Source of the DNA: Minisyncoccota bacterium
GTDB lineage: Bacteria; Patescibacteriota; Minisyncoccia; Minisyncoccales; Minisyncoccaceae
Assembly: GCA_028704295.1 (NCBI GenBank)
Contig: JAQVLF010000001.1
Span: 2,537-66,536, forward strand
Length of the DNA stretch: 64,000 bases
Reading direction: 5' to 3'
Positions 25,318-62,043 of the stretch are shown piece by piece. Position 1 is the first letter of the stretch. Every line of letters starts with the position of its first letter. The notes beneath the pieces were generated by a model, which did no database searches, had not been told where the DNA came from, and was given only the letters and a program-made list of their open reading frames with translations. The position numbers were made by a program, and so were the translations under genes.

Positions 25318-26203
25318 TTAATTTTGACTTAAAGATTCTATTCTCTGATTATATTCTTCTTTAGAAATTCCTCCTTTAGCTAAAAGAGAATTTAATCCTG
25401 CGATATAATTTTGTTTTATTTGAGCATCTGACAATGCTTTCTTGTACAATCTAATCTCGTCTAAAAATCCATTCAAATTTTCCCCAGATGTTCCATTTCT
25501 TCCTAACGTCAAAGCGTAATCATTACTTGTATTAGAAGGAGCATTTGTTACGTTTTTAACTAAGGCGCCATTTCTATAAATACTTAAAATGCTATTTTTT
25601 TGCATATAGACAATATGCACCCATTCATTTATCTTTGGTACGCCGTAACAATCTTCTACTTGACTTTTACCAAATTGAAATCCTCCACCCGAGCAAGTCT
25701 CGAAACTAGCATCAAAATGAATACCTAAAGTTGAACTGGAACTTGCTAAACCTTTTACAAAGACCCCCCTATTACTAGAGATATCTTTTAATTTCACCCA
25801 TAATTCGACTGTATAATTATCCAAAATATTATCTAAAGAACTTGAATCCGAAACTTGAACATAAGAATCATTATCATTTTCTATACATTTTCCTTTTACG
25901 CAATCATTCCCTCCTCTTACGTAAACATTCCCTGAGCGAGAACCATTATTTAGACCATAATTATCTTCAAGATCTGTAGATGACGCTAAACTTCCAGTAG
26001 CGCCCCCCCCCTTCGTCAAACGTCCACTCAGAAACTGAATTCAAAAGCATTGAGTTTTGCACGTTTGAAGAAAAAGCTTTAGCGCGAGCAAATGTTGCAT
26101 TAGAAACAGAAGAAGAAACGGTTACCATGATGACTCCTGCTATAACTCCAATGATAACAATAACTACAAGTAATTCAATTAATGTAAAAGATTTGTTTTT
26201 CAT
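25318..26203 (-). pseudogene. type IV pilin-like protein with a LamG/concanavalin-like lectin domain, split by a frameshift at a G9 tract
   Basis: The N-terminal ORF (25967..26203) has the prepilin motif KSFTLIELLVVIVIIGVIAG. The second ORF (25318..26019) carries LamG-like blocks (YTVELWVKL, LNGFLDEIRLY). The two frames meet at C9 on the plus strand (26003..26011). Removing one G joins ...WTFDEGGG to ATGSLASS.... Confidence 0.7.
26003..26011 (-). repeat. homopolymeric G9 tract (C9 on the plus strand) inside the pilin-LamG coding sequence
   Basis: Read directly: cg-ccccccccc-ttcg. This is striking in such an AT-rich genome. Confidence 0.9.
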
Positions 26204-44750: not shown

Positions 44751-45473
44751 CTATTTCAATATGAAATTTGCCCTTACTGTTATCATTATTTCTTTTTCAA
44801 TTGTGCTTGTATCATACATTCCATAACTTGCTATATCCGTTGAATTTGGCTGCAATACTTGGACAACTCCCATATCAGCGCTCTTTAAAGTTCCAACTCT
44901 TCTGTCAGTGCTTTCGGCAATTGCTTCTGCTCTTTTTTGAGCATCAGCTACAGCTTCTGGCAAAAGTCCAATTCTATCTTCTGGAAGTCTTGTATAATAA
45001 TATTCTGGAGCATTAGTTTGATAAACCACATCCATGTTAATTATGTCATTTGTCTTAGAAGACAAGCTTTTTACTTTTTCAATGTCATTTGAAGTAATTA
45101 CAATTTGCTGAGATAAATGATATCTTGATTCCTCATAAGCGCTTTTTTCGTAAGAATATTGTTCATACATAGAAACAGGATATATCTCGTATTCATCTTC
45201 AGTAATTCCATTGTTCTTTAAAAAGCTGATAACTTTTTCTTCGTCAGCCTTCATCATTTCGTGTCCCTTTTTTAATTGAGATTCAAAGACTGTCCTTGAA
45301 AAACTTGATCTTAACTTTGCCAAATCAGACTCCACTGTTTTTGTAGCTGAACCAGTCACAACAAGCGTATTGTCCAAATTCTGTATTTTAAACAAATAGT
45401 TAGAATAAATTAATACAGAGATTATGAATGACCCTGCTAGTATTAATGATGCGATTACTATTGATTTTTTCAT
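44751..45473 (-). CDS. SIMPL (DUF541) domain protein
   Basis: A TM anchor, VVTGSATKTVESDLA, QKRAEAIAEST, and a C-terminal ITVRANF. Confidence 0.65.
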   Translation of the reverse strand: MKKSIVIASLILAGSFIISVLIYSNYLFKIQNLDNTLVVTGSATKTVESDLAKLRSSFSRTVFESQLKKGHEMMKADEEKVISFLKNNGITEDEYEIYPVSMYEQYSYEKSAYEESRYHLSQQIVITSNDIEKVKSLSSKTNDIINMDVVYQTNAPEYYYTRLPEDRIGLLPEAVADAQKRAEAIAESTDRRVGTLKSADMGVVQVLQPNSTDIASYGMYDTSTIEKEIMITVRANFILK

Positions 45474-45803: not shown

Positions 45804-46835
45804 TTATACCAACTTAATCTTTTGATAAATTATTAAAAATAAAATAAAACATATCTTTGTAAAAATGCTTTTCTTTAAAAAATAGGATTGTGTTTTTCTT
45901 GCATAGGCCCTCCATGTATTAAAGGCTTCTTTAAACGTTCTCTTCTTAATCTTCTTTATCATTTTCAAAACTGTCTTCTTTCTCGGCAAAGTATATTTTT
46001 CAAAAATGACGTATCCTAAAAAGTCTATTCCATTTAAAACAGGAAAAATGCTTGTTGCTTTTTCTTTATACTTTAAGTCTAGCTTACAATTTAAAAATAT
46101 CTCTAATTTGTCTTTGGTTCTCCTTAACTCTTTTTTCTCTTTTTTGAAAATCACAAAATCATCCATGTACCTAAAAAAACATTTAGACTTTAAACCTCTT
46201 TTAACGAATTGATCCATTTCATTTAAATAGATATTGGCAAACAATTGAGAAGTTAAGTTTCCAATAGGAATTCCTTTTTCATTGCTTTTAATAATTGTAT
46301 CAATTAAATTCAAGGCCTTTTTATCTTTAACTTTTCGTTTGATTATTTTAAATAACAAGCTGTTGCTTATGCTGTCGAAATACTTCGAAATATCTGCCTT
46401 GAAGCAAAAAAAATCACCTTTGTTTTTTAATTTTCTCTTAAAATCATTGACTGCCCTATGATTTCCTTTTCCTTTTCTGCAGGCATATGAATAATGATAG
46501 AAAGTATTGTCAAAAATTGGAGTAATGAAATTGCATAAAGCATGATGGACTAATCTATCTTTAACCTGAGGAGCTTTTATCTCTCTTTTTTTAGAATCCC
46601 TTACAATAAACTTTTTATAGCCTCCGTGAATATATGTTTCTTCTTTTAAATCTTTTTGAATTTTAAATAAGTTTTCTTCCAAATTAAAAGAGAACTCTAA
46701 TATTTCTCTTTTATATCTTTTATTCTTTCTAACTTTTAAATATGAATGATGTAAATTGTTAAAAGAATGAATTTGACTATAAAAATTGCCTTTTCTCTTC
46801 ATAAAATTTAAATTTAAACAAATTAAAAGGCCCAT
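45804..46835 (-). CDS. DGR reverse transcriptase
   Basis: IGNLTSQLFANIYLNEMD is the DGR-specific [I/L]GxxxSQ motif, and YMDDFVIF is the catalytic box. The protein is about 330 aa. The probable start is MKRKGNF at 46802. Confidence 0.9.
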   Translation of the reverse strand: MGLLICLNLNFMKRKGNFYSQIHSFNNLHHSYLKVRKNKRYKREILEFSFNLEENLFKIQKDLKEETYIHGGYKKFIVRDSKKREIKAPQVKDRLVHHALCNFITPIFDNTFYHYSYACRKGKGNHRAVNDFKRKLKNKGDFFCFKADISKYFDSISNSLLFKIIKRKVKDKKALNLIDTIIKSNEKGIPIGNLTSQLFANIYLNEMDQFVKRGLKSKCFFRYMDDFVIFKKEKKELRRTKDKLEIFLNCKLDLKYKEKATSIFPVLNGIDFLGYVIFEKYTLPRKKTVLKMIKKIKKRTFKEAFNTWRAYARKTQSYFLKKSIFTKICFILFLIIYQKIKLV

Positions 46836-46998
46836 TTAAGTTAATTAGGATGTTCGAATATTTCTACTAAAACCAATTAAAGATACGGGCCCAATATTTT
46901 CCCTTTTGATTAGTTAATCTACTCGGAAAGGAATAAAGCCAGTATTTTGTAATGGCTCTGTCAGCAATCCTTAGATTAGCTGATTCCGGCCGTGAAAC

Positions 46999-47114
46999 TA
47001 CCGGGCACACCGAAACCCAATGTTGTTGTTCCGATTCTCGGGCGAATTGTTCAGATTCAAAGCAAACACCCCGGCGTTGGAAGTGTTGTTCCAATTCCCG
47101 CCGCGTAGAAACGC
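46999..47114 (-). repeat. DGR template repeat (TR)
   Basis: This 116-nt stretch matches VR 47589..47704 at 106/116 positions. In the target frame it encodes AFLRGGNWNNTSNAGVFALNLNNSPENRNNNIGFRCAR, rich in AAC/AAT codons. It lies between avd and the RT. Confidence 0.9.
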
Positions 47115-47150
47115 AGACCTATTTGTGCGGCTCTATCCCTTTGAAATAGA

Positions 47151-47495
47151 CTAGATTAATACTTGTTGGAAGCCTCCCAAAAGCCGTCCTAATTCAACAA
47201 CTTTCTCTTCGAGACTCTCATATTTCTTCATATTAATGAAGGTAAAATCTTTTGAAAGCCTGATGAAAATTTTTAATTTTTGAAGTTCTATATCTAATTT
47301 TTTAAAATAATTTGGCGTTGCTTTTCCTAAATTTATCACAATTACTAATTCTAAAATTGTGATCAATGTATTTTCTATTTTTTGACCTAATATGAATCTC
47401 TGATTTTTCGGAAATTTTGCAATCGCCGGATGGATTTCTAGAATCAAGTCATATGTCTTTTGAAATAATATTAATTTCTCATGATTCATATTCAA
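47151..47495 (-). CDS. avd: DGR accessory variability determinant (Avd, four-helix-bundle protein)
   Basis: 114 aa with LFQKTYDLILEIHPAIAKFPKNQRFILGQKIENT, typical of the four-helix-bundle / 23S-IVS protein family used by DGRs. Its position between target and TR also fits. Confidence 0.8.
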   Translation of the reverse strand: MNMNHEKLILFQKTYDLILEIHPAIAKFPKNQRFILGQKIENTLITILELVIVINLGKATPNYFKKLDIELQKLKIFIRLSKDFTFINMKKYESLEEKVVELGRLLGGFQQVLI

Positions 47496-47544
47496 TTTTT
47501 AAAAATCAGTTTTATCTTAATGCTTTTTTCCTTTAAAATGCGGG

Positions 47545-47567
47545 GCATTTTTCTAAAAGAAAAATGC
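47545..47567 (-). promoter_or_regulatory. 9-bp hairpin 20 nt downstream of the VR and the target stop codon
   Basis: gcatttttc (47545..47553) pairs with gaaaaatgc (47559..47567) around the loop taaaa. It may be a terminator or the VR-flanking hairpin reported to aid DGR homing. Confidence 0.4.
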
Positions 47568-47587
47568 ACTTTCAGATTATCAGACGA

Positions 47588-48796
47588 TTACCGGGCACAC
47601 CGAAACCCAACGTTGTAGTTCCGATTCTCGGGCGAAGTGTCCAGAATCAAAGCAAACACCCCGGCGTAGGAAGTGTAGTCCCAATACCCGCCGCGTCGAA
47701 ACGCGTGAGTTGGAGAACAGTCTGTTCCTGTGCTAGAACAATACGCATTATTATTATCAGTATAAATTTGTCCAACTCTATTTACAGATGTTAAAGCTCT
47801 ATTTGCTGGTCCAACTTCCGAATAGGGCAGATTGCTTGTATAGTTTATCGCATTAAATTCTCTCCAAGTACTCGAATAATTAGGAAGCTCACTTGTTTGC
47901 TTTGTCTCATCTACCCACTCCCACATATTTCCTGACAAATCCCATATTTCTTCTCCATTTGAAAGAATTAATTTAGCTTTTTCATTTCTTGATGTTCCAT
48001 AATCTGGATCTAAGGCTGAGTTATATGCTCCCGAAGTATCCTCTCCTGTATTCCCTGTCTTAAGATAGCCAACCCCTTTTCCACCTATCCAATTTGAATC
48101 CACATCTGCTATATCCCTTGCAAGCGCCATCCATTCCGCGTTAGTCATTAGATGAGCTCCTATGTTTTGACAAGCTTCTTTTGCTTCATCTTGAGTTACA
48201 TATCTCCATGGAATTCCATCTGCTTGAGAAACAGCCGTATGAGAAGATGTCGAACATCCTGTGGCTGGACAAGTGATTATGCTTGAACCGCTTTTGGCTT
48301 TTGCTTCATACTGCATTATGCACCTATTTCCAAAAGGTATCCAGCCTGATTCGCAAGATGTTTTAATGTCTTGTGTCTTCATATACCTTGATTCTTGGAT
48401 TAGATAACCTTTGTTTCCAGGGGCAGGTGTTCTTATGGAATAGTTTTGTCCATCCGAAAAGTATAGGAGACAATTGTTTGTTCCTGTTATTGTTTGATTT
48501 CCTGCTGTTAATCCATCATAGCTTGGATTAGATGGTACTGTTTGTAATCCATAATATGAGAGAAAGTTTGAATTGTTATTATTATCTTCTAAACAGAGAT
48601 TGCCTTGATGGTAGGTTCCATAAGTTTCTAAGGCAGTGCCTAGGCTGGATAATTGTGCAACCATCTTAGTGTTTTGGGATGTTGCTACAAAAGAAGAAAC
48701 TCCTATTGTGATTAAGCCTGCTATAACTCCGATGATGACAATTACTACAAGAAGCTCGATCAAGGTGAAGGATTCATTTTTTTTATAATTTGACAT
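47588..48796 (-). CDS. DGR target: type IV pilin-like N-terminus fused to an FGE-sulfatase / C-type-lectin-fold domain
   Basis: The N-terminus ESFTLIELLVVIVIIGVIAG is the prepilin cleavage/methylation motif. LSGNMWEWV and the C-terminus RGGYW...GFRCAR are hallmarks of the FGE/CLec fold used by DGR variable proteins. Confidence 0.85.
   Translation of the reverse strand: MSNYKKNESFTLIELLVVIVIIGVIAGLITIGVSSFVATSQNTKMVAQLSSLGTALETYGTYHQGNLCLEDNNNNSNFLSYYGLQTVPSNPSYDGLTAGNQTITGTNNCLLYFSDGQNYSIRTPAPGNKGYLIQESRYMKTQDIKTSCESGWIPFGNRCIMQYEAKAKSGSSIITCPATGCSTSSHTAVSQADGIPWRYVTQDEAKEACQNIGAHLMTNAEWMALARDIADVDSNWIGGKGVGYLKTGNTGEDTSGAYNSALDPDYGTSRNEKAKLILSNGEEIWDLSGNMWEWVDETKQTSELPNYSSTWREFNAINYTSNLPYSEVGPANRALTSVNRVGQIYTDNNNAYCSSTGTDCSPTHAFRRGGYWDYTSYAGVFALILDTSPENRNYNVGFRCAR
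47589..47704 (-). repeat. DGR variable repeat (VR) at the 3' end of the target gene
   Basis: It differs from the TR at 9 positions that are all A in the TR on the coding strand (plus-strand coordinates 47611, 47617, 47637, 47641, 47646, 47668, 47677, 47680, 47686), plus one non-A difference at 47697. Confidence 0.9.
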
Positions 48797-48863
48797 AAGT
48801 ATAGATTAGTTTTAGTTTATTATTTACCGTTATTATATCAGAAATGTAAAATTGTGCAAACTA

Positions 48864-50183
48864 TTATAATTCGTAACTATTTTTCATTTGAGGAACAACA
48901 ACATCTTTAATATCTTTTTCTAATTTCTTTTTTAAAGCTAATGATTCTTCCTCATCCCCATGATTAATAAAAACTTTTTGAGGATTCATTTTTAAAACCC
49001 ATTCTGTTAATTTTAATGAATCCGCATGAGAAGAAAAAGAATCAATTTTCTTAACTTTAGCCTTAATAATAATTTCCTTGTCGTTAATAAATATTCTCTC
49101 CCTATTTTCTAATTTTTTGCCCAAGGTTCCTTCTGCTTGATAAGAATTTAATAAAATGACGTTGTTTCTGTCTTTCCCGAAGCGAGCAATGTATGAAGGC
49201 ATTCTTCCGCCAGAACACATGCCCGATCCAGCAATAATTATTTTAGCTCCATGATTTTTTAAAATCTCCTTTGAATCTTTTATCTTTTTAGTTTTTTTAA
49301 ATCCTTTAAAGTCAAAAATATTATCTCCTGAATTAATCAATGTGATAGCTTCGTTATCAAAAATGTTTTTGTAATTTTCATAAATTTCTGTTGCCTTTAT
49401 GGCAAGAGGACTGTCTAAAAAAATATTAATAAATGGAATTTCTTTATTCTCTACAAACTTATTTATTTCAAACAATATTTCTTGTGTCCGCTCTATACTA
49501 AAGCTAGGAATTAGAAGAACTGAATCTTTTTGAATAACTTCCTTAATAGTATTTAAAAGCTCTAGAACTCCCTTTTCCCTTTTTTCATGTATTTTTCCTC
49601 CATAAGTAGATTCAGTAAAAACAATGTCTCCAGAATCTATAAATTCCGTATCTCTAACAATAGGCGCATTATGGTTTCCGAGGTCTCCAGAAAAAACTAG
49701 TTTCTTTCCCTCTAAAAAAACTTCAAAAATTGTAGAGCCTAAGATATGTCCAGCATCTTTTAGTTTAATCTTGATGTTCTTAAAAGCAATTTCGTCTTCA
49801 TAATTAAAACATTGAAATAGCTCCATTGTTTTTAAAACGTCAGCAAAATTAAAAAGAGGAATCCTTAAGTCCTTTTCAAAAATATTAGCAGAGTCCTTTA
49901 AAATAATCTCTGTTAGATCTCGTGTTGCTTTTGTACTATAGATTTTTCCGTTAAATCCGTTCTTTAAAAGCTTGGGAAGCCTTCCTGAATGATCCAAATG
50001 CGCATGAGTCAATAATACAAAATCAATTTCTTTTGGATCAAATCCAAAGTCTTCTAGATTTTTTTCATACGAATTCAACCCTTGAAACATTCCTGAATCT
50101 ATTAAAAACTTTGCTTCTTGAGACTCTATTAATATGCAGGAGCCCGTGACTTCTCTTGCTGCTCCATAAAAAGATACTTTCAT
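48864..50183 (-). CDS. MBL-fold beta-CASP family ribonuclease/hydrolase
   Basis: GAAREVTGSC, LLTHAHLDHSG, and later beta-CASP blocks (ESTYG, the SSHAD region). Confidence 0.8.
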   Translation of the reverse strand: MKVSFYGAAREVTGSCILIESQEAKFLIDSGMFQGLNSYEKNLEDFGFDPKEIDFVLLTHAHLDHSGRLPKLLKNGFNGKIYSTKATRDLTEIILKDSANIFEKDLRIPLFNFADVLKTMELFQCFNYEDEIAFKNIKIKLKDAGHILGSTIFEVFLEGKKLVFSGDLGNHNAPIVRDTEFIDSGDIVFTESTYGGKIHEKREKGVLELLNTIKEVIQKDSVLLIPSFSIERTQEILFEINKFVENKEIPFINIFLDSPLAIKATEIYENYKNIFDNEAITLINSGDNIFDFKGFKKTKKIKDSKEILKNHGAKIIIAGSGMCSGGRMPSYIARFGKDRNNVILLNSYQAEGTLGKKLENRERIFINDKEIIIKAKVKKIDSFSSHADSLKLTEWVLKMNPQKVFINHGDEEESLALKKKLEKDIKDVVVPQMKNSYEL

Positions 50184-50376: not shown

Positions 50377-50649
50377 TTAAAAAATTTCCGAATGTGAACC
50401 GATTCTTAAAAGTAATATAATAGACTCTTCTTTTTTAATTTTATAAATTAAAAGTACATCTGGCTTTATATGACATTCGAAACATCCCTTAAATTCTCCT
50501 GATAAGCTATGATTAGAATTTTTAAAGGGCAATCGTCCTCCATCAGTTAAAATATTCAAAATTGTCTCTAACTCTTTAATAATATTACTATTATATTCGT
50601 AATGCTTTAAGTTTTTTTTGAATTTATTAGAATATTTTATTTTAAGCAT
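50377..50649 (-). CDS. yafQ: type II toxin, YafQ/RelE family mRNA interferase
   Basis: HSLSGEFKGCFECHIKPDVLLIY matches the YafQ H.L.G....ECHI.PD.LLIY signature. Confidence 0.8.
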   Translation of the reverse strand: MLKIKYSNKFKKNLKHYEYNSNIIKELETILNILTDGGRLPFKNSNHSLSGEFKGCFECHIKPDVLLIYKIKKEESIILLLRIGSHSEIF

Positions 50650-50650
50650 G

Positions 50651-50932
50651 TCAGTCTTTTAAAACATCACGAATAAGGTCTGCTCCATTTGTAAAAGATT
50701 TTTCGCTATTTTCTGCCTCTATAATTGCTTCACGTAAAATTTCGGCATTGCGTAAAGTCATACCATTACTGTCTCTTAATTCACAAGGAAAACTTTTTGT
50801 ATTTATTACTTGTCTAAAAAAGATTTTAATAGCGGAACTCATATCCATTCCCAAATTCTCTAAAATTTTCTTTGCTTCTTTTTTTGTTTTAGAATCTATA
50901 CGAATTTGAATTTGTGTATTTTTATTAGTCAT
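50651..50932 (-). CDS. dinJ: type II antitoxin, DinJ/RelB family
   Basis: From the internal Met: MTNKNTQIQIRIDSKTKKEAKKILENLGMDMSSAIKIF is the ribbon-helix-helix DinJ pattern. There is a 1-nt gap to the toxin gene. Confidence 0.7.
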   Translation of the reverse strand: MTNKNTQIQIRIDSKTKKEAKKILENLGMDMSSAIKIFFRQVINTKSFPCELRDSNGMTLRNAEILREAIIEAENSEKSFTNGADLIRDVLKD

Positions 50933-51054
50933 ATTTATATTGTATTGAATTTGTATGCATTTGTCAATATATTTTCTTTTACTACTTATTTTGATGAAAT
51001 CCATAATCACGTAAGTATTGTCAAACAATGATTTAAAAGATATTATATTTATAT

Positions 51055-61284: not shown

Positions 61285-62043
61285 TTATTTTACTTTATAT
61301 ATAATGGTTACATTAGAAGTAATGGTGTTCTCTCCTGTCTCAATGGATGGAGAAACACTATCTGCCGCTCCTCCCATGCCAAGCATCTTATATGAAGAAG
61401 TTGCTTCATAATATACTGGGTTATAAGTATTTTCATAAAAGCCGATAATTTCTTTCAAAGACACTCCTAAATCCTTTTCTAATTTTAAAGCTTTGTCTTT
61501 AGCGTCAGTAATAGCCTGCTCCTTTGCCTGTTCTTTCAATAACTCATCATTATCGATAATAAAGCTCAACCCTGAAACATCATTAGCTCCTCTTGATGTT
61601 GCTCCAGAGATAATGTCGCCAACCATATTCAAATCTCTAATTTTAATAATCAAACTCTGAGTGACATCATATCCTGCCAAGTATCTATTCCTATAATCCT
61701 CTCCATACTCATATCTTGGATTAATATTATATGTGCTTGTCTTTATATCCTTATCTTCTATATTTTTTTCTTTAAGAAAAGAAATAATGTCATTGATCTT
61801 TATATTGTTCTCTTCGGTAGCCAAGCCTAAATCTTTGTTTCCAGTTATAACAGTTAGGTTAATTTGAGCTACATCAGGCTTCGCATTAATTTCAGCAGAC
61901 CCTGTAACTGAAATTGTATTAATGGTTTCCTTGTCTTCTCTTGAATTTAGAATGGAGAAAACGAAGAAAATAATTAAAATTATTAAAAATAATTTTACTA
62001 AACCTTTGAAACCGTTATCATTAAATAAATCTTCTTTTTCCAT
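61285..62043 (-). CDS. SIMPL (DUF541) domain protein
   Basis: A TM anchor, TISVTGSAEINAKPDVAQINLTV, and the C-terminal ITSNVTIIYKV. Confidence 0.65.
   Translation of the reverse strand: MEKEDLFNDNGFKGLVKLFLIILIIFFVFSILNSREDKETINTISVTGSAEINAKPDVAQINLTVITGNKDLGLATEENNIKINDIISFLKEKNIEDKDIKTSTYNINPRYEYGEDYRNRYLAGYDVTQSLIIKIRDLNMVGDIISGATSRGANDVSGLSFIIDNDELLKEQAKEQAITDAKDKALKLEKDLGVSLKEIIGFYENTYNPVYYEATSSYKMLGMGGAADSVSPSIETGENTITSNVTIIYKVK

Follow-up and report, generated by a model that had tools for sequence, protein, structure and literature searches.

Introduction

Described systems with which the locus analyzed here can be compared include the diversity-generating retroelement (DGR) of the Bordetella phage BPP-1 and the cellular DGRs of the Candidate Phyla Radiation (CPR), as well as the modular type IV pilins. 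[quoted passage not shown] The DGR as such is ordinary, and a textbook DGR is to be expected in a CPR genome; what the locus adds is a family of pilin-type targets, a set of conserved DGR RNA elements and a recurrent T-to-G site in the repeats.

The RNA that forms a complex with the reverse transcriptase (RT) and Avd of the Bordetella phage has been described in some detail (bioRxiv 10.1101/2023.10.23.563531). A tetraloop-capped, Avd-binding stem-loop directly follows the template repeat (TR), and the RNA further contains a template:primer duplex, a long RT-binding stem-loop, and a duplex between upstream and spacer sequences, the 'cPRT Stop', which is followed by a short stem-loop and adenosines; similar elements were reported for CPR DGRs in the same work. 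In addition, a hairpin or cruciform is required for efficient homing in BPP-1 (PMC3240598).

According to the largest DGR survey, DGRs are enriched in the CPR lineage, and their targets there are typically without a recognisable membrane or other domain; the survey leaves open whether these targets are surface proteins (PMC8144416). Modular pilins, which consist of a pilin module and a grafted binding module, are thought to be located at the pilus tip (Raynaud et al., PMC8179133), and in cultivated CPR relatives type IV pili are the organelle for host attachment (PMC13293708).

Results

A DGR cassette with adenine-specific repeat differences

A repeat search of the window returned a single 116-nt direct repeat, at 46999-47114 and 47589-47704 (start-to-start distance 590, 91% identity), and the homology between the copies breaks off abruptly at either end. 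The copies, a TR and a variable repeat (VR), belong to a cassette of which all parts lie on the minus strand, in the order target(VR)-avd-TR-RT:

47588..48796, minus strand: target gene, an open reading frame (ORF) of 402 aa, with the VR as its last 38 residues
47589..47704, minus strand: VR, ending within the stop codon TAA
47151..47495, minus strand: avd, with the likely true start at the ATG at 47489
46999..47114, minus strand: TR, non-coding, 36 nt after avd, with 27 adenines
45804..46802, minus strand: DGR RT gene, 332 aa, with a match to Pfam RVT_1

When the two copies were compared base by base, 106 of the 116 positions were identical, and nine of the ten mismatches fell on adenines of the minus-strand TR (plus-strand T at 47021, 47027, 47047, 47051, 47056, 47078, 47087, 47090 and 47096). 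With 27 A among 116 positions, the probability that at least nine of ten mismatches fall on A by chance is 5.2e-6 (hypergeometric). The tenth mismatch, at 47107, has a plus-strand A in the TR, and on the minus strand it is T in the TR versus G in the VR. An earlier note on this DNA had given the repeat coordinates, the offset of 590, the 106 identities, the nine-in-ten adenine pattern and the translations of both repeats, and our re-alignment returned the same values; the gene order and single strand that it reported agree with the ORF map, and this order is common to related loci with A-only mismatches. Its description of the changes as a recoding of Asn to Y, D, I and T holds for the eight Asn codons (AAY) concerned, and leaves unmentioned one Ile to Val change (A to G) and one Leu to Arg change (CTA to CGA), the latter at the non-adenine position.

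Read in the frame of the target, the TR has 15 adenine-containing codons, of which 11 are AAY and none can mutate to a stop codon, and about 5.5e14 protein variants are possible from these codons. TR and VR stand out as GC-rich islands (0.44-0.48) in a window of 30% GC. A scan of both strands of the window with the non-A positions of the repeat found only the TR itself and the VR (88/89), and no second VR-like copy.

The RT gene more likely starts at 46802 (MKRKGNF..., the homologue consensus) than at the first ATG of the ORF, 46835. Among proteins of solved structure, its product was most similar to the 328-aa RT of PDB entry 8ub7 (E = 4e-53, 184 bits), which is deposited simply as 'Reverse transcriptase' and which we take to be the Bordetella phage bRT; the best group II and retron-type RTs scored 88 and 84 bits, respectively. 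The protein is 38% identical to the annotated BPP-1 brt product (E = 8e-48) and matches phrog_1423 (E = 1.5e-105). Its closest homologues come nearly all from Paceibacteria/CPR, and the motifs PIGNLTSQ and RYMDDF are invariant among 33 RT homologues; the assignment to the DGR clade was made from similarity scores and motifs. Avd, in turn, exceeds the curated cut-offs of NCBIfam NF033474 DivGenRetAVD (91.5 bits, cut-off 80) and Pfam PF22296 bAvd (67.3, cut-off 40), and matches phrog_3206, 'Avd protein of DGR' (5e-23). Both identifications had been proposed before, the RT on the basis of its IGNLTSQ and YMDD motifs, and both stand.

A sceptical reading would explain the repeat by a duplication in the assembly or by an ordinary tract of gene conversion, and would take the RT for an unrelated enzyme of the retron, group II or defence kind. 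Nothing speaks for this beyond the presence of a repeat and of an RT and the sub-threshold scores of the NCBIfam models for group II and retron RTs. However, the mismatch spectrum is adenine-specific, one copy lies in frame at the 3' end of a gene whereas the other is non-coding and sits beside Avd and RT, and the same layout is found on many independent contigs. As for the RT, the 184 bits against 8ub7 compare with at most 88 bits against group II and retron RTs, and with the NCBIfam group II model, whose cut-off is 300, the score is 156 bits; the NCBIfam group II, retron and Drt3a models all remain far under their cut-offs, and among the PADLOC models only the generic RT model scores high, the defence RT classes scoring much lower. 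The mismatches, the layout and the RT scores thus already refute this explanation, whose probability is practically nil. What the locus contains is an RT with motif 4 [LIV]GxxxSQ and YxDD, an adenine-biased TR/VR pair, a VR at the 3' end of a CLec gene, a non-coding TR, an Avd and a structured RNA, which are the characteristics of a DGR.

Conserved RNA elements around TR and VR

The 196-nt spacer between TR and RT was aligned with the spacers of 11 related loci (alignment A4, 12 loci in all). Together with the sequences upstream of the TR and downstream of the VR, it yielded the following elements:

47129..47139, minus strand: upstream strand, GGGAUAGAGCC, of a duplex that brackets the TR and is the counterpart of the 'cPRT Stop', the avd:Sp duplex of the Bordetella phage DGR RNA (RNAduplex and minimum-free-energy fold)
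46954..46991, minus strand: candidate Avd-binding stem-loop 3' of the TR, CAGC-U-AAUC / UAAG loop / GAUUGCUG, with an outer GGC/GCC stem
46942..46948, minus strand: conserved AAAAUAC with a potential pairing partner, GUAGUUU, at the 3' boundary of the TR (paired by eye)
46930..46940, minus strand: spacer strand of the TR-bracketing duplex, GGCUUUAUUCC (RNAduplex and minimum-free-energy fold)
46899..46929, minus strand: short stem-loop UUUCC...GGGAA followed by an A-rich run (helix 2 of the alignment, 96.7% paired)
46829..46892, minus strand: long interrupted stem around a conserved UUUAGUAG...CGAA, candidate RT-binding stem-loop (helices 3 and 4)
47545..47567, minus strand: perfect 10-bp hairpin GCATTTTTCT-TTT-AGAAAAATGC, beginning 22 nt past the VR

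RNAalifold predicted four helices with 21 pairs in the spacer, and 16 of these pairs show compensatory changes. In the helices 94% of the cells of the alignment are paired, compared with 77% in column shuffles, and none of 500 shuffles reached the observed values by any measure; when the partners were slid by one to three columns, pairing fell to 33-56%. Helix 1, which is the candidate Avd-binding stem-loop, shows compensatory changes at all five of its pairs and also appears in the single-sequence fold; in most relatives a stem-loop of this type carries a UACG (UNCG) tetraloop. For helices 3 and 4 the corresponding figures are 10 of 11 pairs with compensatory changes and 95-97% of cells paired. 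The sequence of the UUUCC...GGGAA stem differs in more distant relatives, in which the pairing is preserved, and this stem-loop with its A-rich run matches the part of the cPRT Stop element that consists of a stem-loop and adenosines. The TR-bracketing duplex was detected with RNAduplex in 12 of the 12 loci (11-14 bp, with covarying or compensatory changes), and an unconstrained fold of 46803-47150 recovered the same duplex and stem-loops (z = -3.4).

Feature by feature, this set matches the elements described for the DGR RNA of the Bordetella phage. The pairing of AAAAUAC with GUAGUUU was proposed by eye on the model of Sp A56 of BPP-1; it may represent the template:primer duplex, in which case the priming adenosine would lie in the conserved UAC, at about 46943. 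A search of Rfam returned no family for the spacer, and one tRNA was its sole match in the window.

The 70-nt region downstream of the VR also folds well (z = -3.1), and hairpins of differing sequence occur 20-24 nt past the VR in five of the related loci (L089, L087, L102, L101 and L123). The hairpin at 47545-47567 is therefore best described as a candidate target-recognition hairpin or cruciform; alternatively, it could be a weak terminator, a role that is unconvincing because no T-run follows the hairpin.

A modular, type IV pilin-like target with a CLec domain

The following feature marks the N-terminus of the target:

48623..48796, minus strand: class III (prepilin) signal and hydrophobic alpha-1 helix, residues 1-58, with the motif KNES/FTLIELLVVIVIIG and Glu at +5

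Residues 5-29 pass the cut-offs of PF07963 N_methyl (29.1 bits, cut-off 21.2) and NCBIfam TIGR02532 (20.9, cut-off 16.3), and phmmer aligned residues 5-64 with GspG and with solved pilins, in each case over the N-terminal helix. The short polar leader, a cleavage site before F/M, the Glu at +5 and about 20 residues of hydrophobic sequence, which together define a class III signal, are all present, with Ser as the -1 residue; within KNES|FTLIELLVVIVIIG, the residues F, T, I, E, L, V and G are invariant among 50 homologues. A confident AlphaFold2 model built with 50 homologues (predicted local distance difference test, pLDDT, 87.4; predicted template modelling score, pTM, 0.87) starts with a 47-residue helix at residues 12-58; a small beta head follows at 65-135, and residues 150-402 make up a large domain. 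The strands of the beta head have pLDDT values of 81-92, and lower values in one loop. The target is thus a modular type IV pilin-like protein composed of a prepilin signal, a long helix, a beta head and a CLec domain, a character that the earlier note does not mention.

For the fold of the large domain, the best Foldseek matches in the PDB were the DGR variable proteins TaqVP (5vf4, 1.7e-8) and Mtd (1yu4), followed by formylglycine-generating enzymes (FGEs) and TvpA (2y3c); a phmmer search of the PDB with the CLec domain alone gave just marginal matches. The protein is named 'SUMF1/EgtB/PvdO family nonheme iron enzyme' by NCBI, and it could accordingly be a formylglycine-generating enzyme and not a binding protein. 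Besides this annotation, FGE structures among the fold matches and a match to Pfam FGE-sulfatase (33.7 bits, cut-off 23.3) speak for an enzyme. The Pfam match is partial (residues 183-304, profile positions 77-199 of 255), whereas DGR variable proteins fit the fold better, so that family membership is not indicated. The catalytic cysteines of FGEs sit in the C-terminal segment, and this very segment is hypervariable in relatives of the target, which is incompatible with a conserved active site. Moreover, the target bears a prepilin signal. We therefore regard an enzyme as very improbable; the NCBI name reflects the shared fold only.

Relatives and natural variation

The target family comprises 207 matches at E <= 1e-5. 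Most of those listed have the same two Pfam domains, and most of the named ones are from Paceibacteria. The family shares the C-terminal consensus HAFxRGGxWxxGxxAGVFALxLxxSPSxxxxxxGFRCAR, in which the x positions correspond to TR adenine codons. Target-avd-TR-RT cassettes at three other loci, each with a homologue of the target, show the same bias: TR adenines account for 21 of the 21 mismatches in L086, for 13 of 13 in L087 (GCA_030154545.1, of which the RT carries the NCBI name Candidatus Microsyncoccus archaeolyticus) and for 10 of 12 in L088. A metagenome scan with the RT alignment added 80 further loci, and adenine-dominated TR/VR pairs were found in about 30, namely those with enough flanking DNA. 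The prepilin motif was present in 7 of 26 complete VR-bearing ORFs, a rough census in which some reading frames were wrongly chosen. A profile search of genome contigs with the target alignment was dominated by the generic pilin N-terminus (FTLIELLVV) and gave two relevant loci.

A single TR can serve two targets in this family. On JGI contig Ga0603661_0064, one TR (L169:6638-6762) is accompanied by two pilin-type targets about 11 kb apart. Within the repeat proper, 7 of the 9 differences from the adjacent VR (L169:5882-6006) and 12 of the 12 differences from the remote VR (L085:2135-2259) lie on TR adenines. The closest homologues of the target (P0007, P0002, P0030 and P0022) have no avd or RT within 6 kb, and we considered them as DGR-less paralogues. 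This idea was dropped, as P0022 proved to be the remote target of the TR 11 kb away; hence, the lack of a nearby RT is not evidence of independence.

Variation among near-identical sequences was examined in clusters at 90% identity. In the clusters of P0033 and P0019, the frequency of variable columns was 0.29-0.31 per column in the last 45 residues and 0.02-0.06 elsewhere, and the variable columns coincide exactly with the x positions of the consensus. Such variation is population-level evidence of DGR activity for the family and not for the window locus. The clusters of P0038 and P0031, with the C-terminus GFRCVK or GFRCVR and 7-13 near-identical members, show no VR-focused variation.

Some further observations concern the surroundings of the related loci. 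One 202-kb Minisyncoccales contig carries at least three pilin-CLec paralogues. L082 and L087 share a neighbourhood (ATP synthase operon ... NIF3 ... radical SAM ... methyltransferase) in which the shared site is occupied by target-avd-TR-RT in L087 and by the target only in L082; the comparison suggests that the avd-TR-RT module has been gained or lost at a conserved site. A tRNA-rich segment upstream of the target in L088 (L088:3941-5473) contains several direct and inverted repeats of 62-107 nt that are 96-100% identical.

A recurrent T-to-G difference

The only non-adenine mismatch of the window locus is the T-to-G change at 47107 (CTA in the TR, CGA in the VR; Leu to Arg). The affected codon directly precedes a conserved Arg-Gly-Gly, and the change is 8 nt away from the repeat's 5' edge. 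It is not an isolated case. A second-position T-to-G change at the same codon also occurs in L088, L101, L108 and L111, and where the TR has A at that second codon position the VR often has G. In 9 of 28 VRs the codon before Arg-Gly-Gly specifies Arg. The template codon of the P0033 and P0019 clusters is ATA, and the residue at this place is F, L, I, M, R or G, so that the second codon base is only T or G. Among 37 TR/VR pairs of this RT clade, 19 of the 39 non-adenine differences are T-to-G, a few of which are end-of-homology effects, and one is T-to-C. A general DGR survey, in contrast, found that thymine changes mostly to cytosine (PMC6642488). Strong selection for Arg may reveal rare errors at this site; a misincorporation at U that is specific to the clade may provide a U-to-G mode beside adenine mutagenesis; or an older allele may be retained in the 5' crossover zone.

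Proposed mechanism, possible pilus display and probable present-day activity

We propose the following course of events, modelled on the RNA elements and genes described above. A transcript from the intergenic region between avd and TR would extend across the TR and the 196-nt spacer, with the long-range duplex bracketing the TR and with stem-loops of the spacer binding Avd and RT. The RT-Avd complex would prime itself from a spacer adenosine near the TR 3' end and copy the TR into cDNA with misincorporation opposite template adenines, and this cDNA would take the place of the VR with which the target gene ends. The invariant, GC-rich 3' end of the repeat would probably help in this replacement, as would the hairpin that begins 22 nt past the VR. 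In this way as many as 15 codons, among them 11 AAY codons and none that can turn into a stop, could be recoded, giving about 5e14 variants in the presumed ligand-binding face of a C-type-lectin fold. Borne on a pilus, such a variable domain might act as an adjustable adhesin with which an episymbiotic cell recognises its host or a substrate.

Several observations weigh against our interpretation of the locus. Of the ten TR/VR mismatches, one lies outside the adenines. The last 22 nt are the same in TR and VR, and for this reason a pair of initiation of mutagenic homing sites (IMH/IMH*) cannot be distinguished. The -1 residue of the prepilin cleavage site is Ser and not the usual Gly, the pilin module modelled poorly in isolation (pLDDT 56.7) and gave no significant Foldseek match, and no gene for type IV pilus machinery was found among the approximately 30 window ORFs, mostly of at least 120 aa, that were scanned against Pfam. 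Finally, the 90% cluster of the target has one member, which leaves ongoing activity to be inferred.

Some of these observations would suit a target that is not a pilus subunit, with a prepilin-like N-terminus serving as a membrane anchor or export signal, as in pseudopilin/Com-type proteins, and with the variable domain on the cell surface or acting as a receptor. The size of 402 aa, far larger than that of major pilins, points the same way as the Ser at -1, the lack of machinery genes among the scanned ORFs and the fruitless fold search with the pilin module. On the other hand, curated prepilin models are passed, and the arrangement of a 47-residue helix at the N-terminus with a small beta head behind it is that of a pilin. 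Bulky modular pilins, thought to sit at the pilus tip, are documented (PMC8179133), and type IV pili that mediate host attachment are a hallmark of the phylum (PMC13293708). On balance, a mere anchor or export signal appears rather unlikely. Given that the target is modular type IV pilin-like, export and display on a pilus would be the most likely fate of the variable domain; its display on a type IV pilus or pseudopilus, or at the tip of one, has in our estimation about an even chance.

A different question is whether the DGR is still at work. The earlier note took it to be apparently intact and recently active. The cassette could be intact by sequence and no longer mobilising, in which case the VR differences would go back to a single old homing event or to a few of them, and the target would by now evolve as any ordinary gene does. 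This would fit the single-member 90% cluster of the target, in which no variants are seen, the P0038 and P0031 clusters that lack VR-focused variation, and the finding that just 9 of the 27 adenines differ. However, all ORFs are open, the catalytic motifs of the RT and Avd are intact, and all RNA elements are present and pair correctly. The 116 nt contain one non-A difference, which implies little ordinary drift since the last homing event, and close relatives vary in nature. We therefore consider a silent cassette unlikely, and the DGR of the window is probably active at present, an inference in view of the single-member cluster.

Genomic context

The cassette is surrounded by ordinary chromosomal genes, including those for UvrA, UvrB, UvrC, tyrosyl-tRNA synthetase, YchF and an AddA-like helicase-nuclease, and further for a beta-CASP RNase, ATP-grasp ligases, signal peptidase I and a YafQ/RelB pair. 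No sign of a prophage was seen among the scanned window genes, a setting in keeping with the CPR clade of cellular DGRs (PMC8144416). Upstream of the target gene a promoter-like site was noted:

48832..48860, minus strand: promoter-like site 5' of the target gene, TTTGCA, 17 nt, TG-TATAAT, with 10 of 12 consensus matches

In a scan for promoters and terminators, sites in the region were no more numerous than in shuffles. The YafQ-type toxin and RelB antitoxin genes (50377-51028, minus strand) are found some 1.6 kb upstream of the target; the one gene between this pair and the target is that of the beta-CASP RNase (48864-50183). SIMPL/DUF541 genes are present at 44751-45473 and 61285-62043, one of them directly downstream of the RT.

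The window contains a second modular pilin-like gene (25318-26203, minus strand), which is split into ORFs of 78 and 233 aa by a G9 run at 26003-26011, the sole G/C homopolymer of at least 7 in the window. It encodes a Laminin_G_3/LamG lectin module and a prepilin N-terminus that is nearly identical to the one of the DGR target. With G8 or G11 in place of G9, an ORF of 294 aa is restored that passes both Pfam models. The gene is either a phase-variable contingency locus or the product of a sequencing error.

Discussion

The pilin nature of a DGR target is not new in principle and is barely documented: our literature search, whose reach did not extend to Paul et al. 2017 on CPR DGRs, found no paper tying DGRs to prepilins or type IV pilins. 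The target of the window has a clear prepilin signal and helix, and type IV pili are used for host attachment; the locus therefore provides a concrete hypothesis, in which a DGR retunes a pilus-borne, lectin-like adhesin. Extending this idea, the modular pilins of Paceibacteria (more than 200, with several paralogues per genome and some served by one TR in trans) could form a DGR-programmable repertoire of pilus-tip adhesins with which these ultra-small episymbionts would find and switch hosts, a proposal that we put forward tentatively, giving it slightly less than an even chance. If true, it would answer what the DGR targets of CPR bacteria are and where they are located, a question raised by the global surveys. 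Candidatus Microsyncoccus archaeolyticus is maintained in an enrichment culture with a methanogen host (PMC10936435). Since one of the related cassettes (L087) lies in an assembly labelled with the name of this culturable organism, expression, processing and VR dynamics are open to experiment.

With the DGR of BPP-1 (mtd-avd-TR-brt), the locus shares the order target(VR)-avd-TR-RT on one strand, the presence of Avd, a TR rich in AAY codons, an RT 38% identical to Brt and a variable protein of the CLec fold, with Mtd among the top fold matches. The similarity extends to the spacer RNA, with its Avd-type stem-loop, TR-bracketing duplex, stem-loop plus adenosines and long RT-type stem, and to a hairpin downstream of the VR. 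The two systems also differ in several respects. The DGR of BPP-1 is phage-borne and acts on a protein at the tip of the tail fibre, whereas that of the window is chromosomal and cellular and has a prepilin-type target. The upstream strand of the bracketing duplex is located inside avd in BPP-1 and in the avd-TR intergenic region here, the hairpin follows the repeat immediately in BPP-1 and after about 22 nt here, and an IMH/IMH* pair cannot be distinguished in the window.

The variable domain itself resembles TaqVP (5vf4) and TvpA (2y3c) in structure and in the motifs HLMTNAEW, GNxWEWV and RGGxW...AGxxAL...GxR. Sequence identity to these proteins is about 16%, however, and their N-terminal parts differ and are without a pilin module. 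DGRs that diversify the adhesive component of a pilus have been described in Bacteroides (bioRxiv 10.1101/2024.11.15.621889). According to that preprint, they act on adhesins of type V (chaperone/strand-exchange) pili, not of type IV pili, and both the phylum and the protein family differ from those considered here.

A class III signal and a pilin module followed by a bulky ligand-binding module are also found in the modular type IV pilins PilB (vWA) and PilC (lectin) of Streptococcus sanguinis (PMC8179133), and the pilin-LamG gene of the same window has the architecture of PilC. In contrast to PilB and PilC, the module of the DGR target is CLec/FGE-like, its binding face would be rewritten by a retroelement, and its -1 residue is Ser instead of Gly; incorporation into a pilus is predicted here from sequence and model. 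Lastly, the locus agrees with the cellular CPR DGRs (clade 2, Roux et al. 2021, PMC8144416) in its 'Candidatus Pacebacteria' lineage, its chromosomal location, the CLec fold of its target and the existence of remote targets. Unlike the CPR DGRs as surveyed, the target of the window and its more than 200 relatives have a recognisable prepilin N-terminus.

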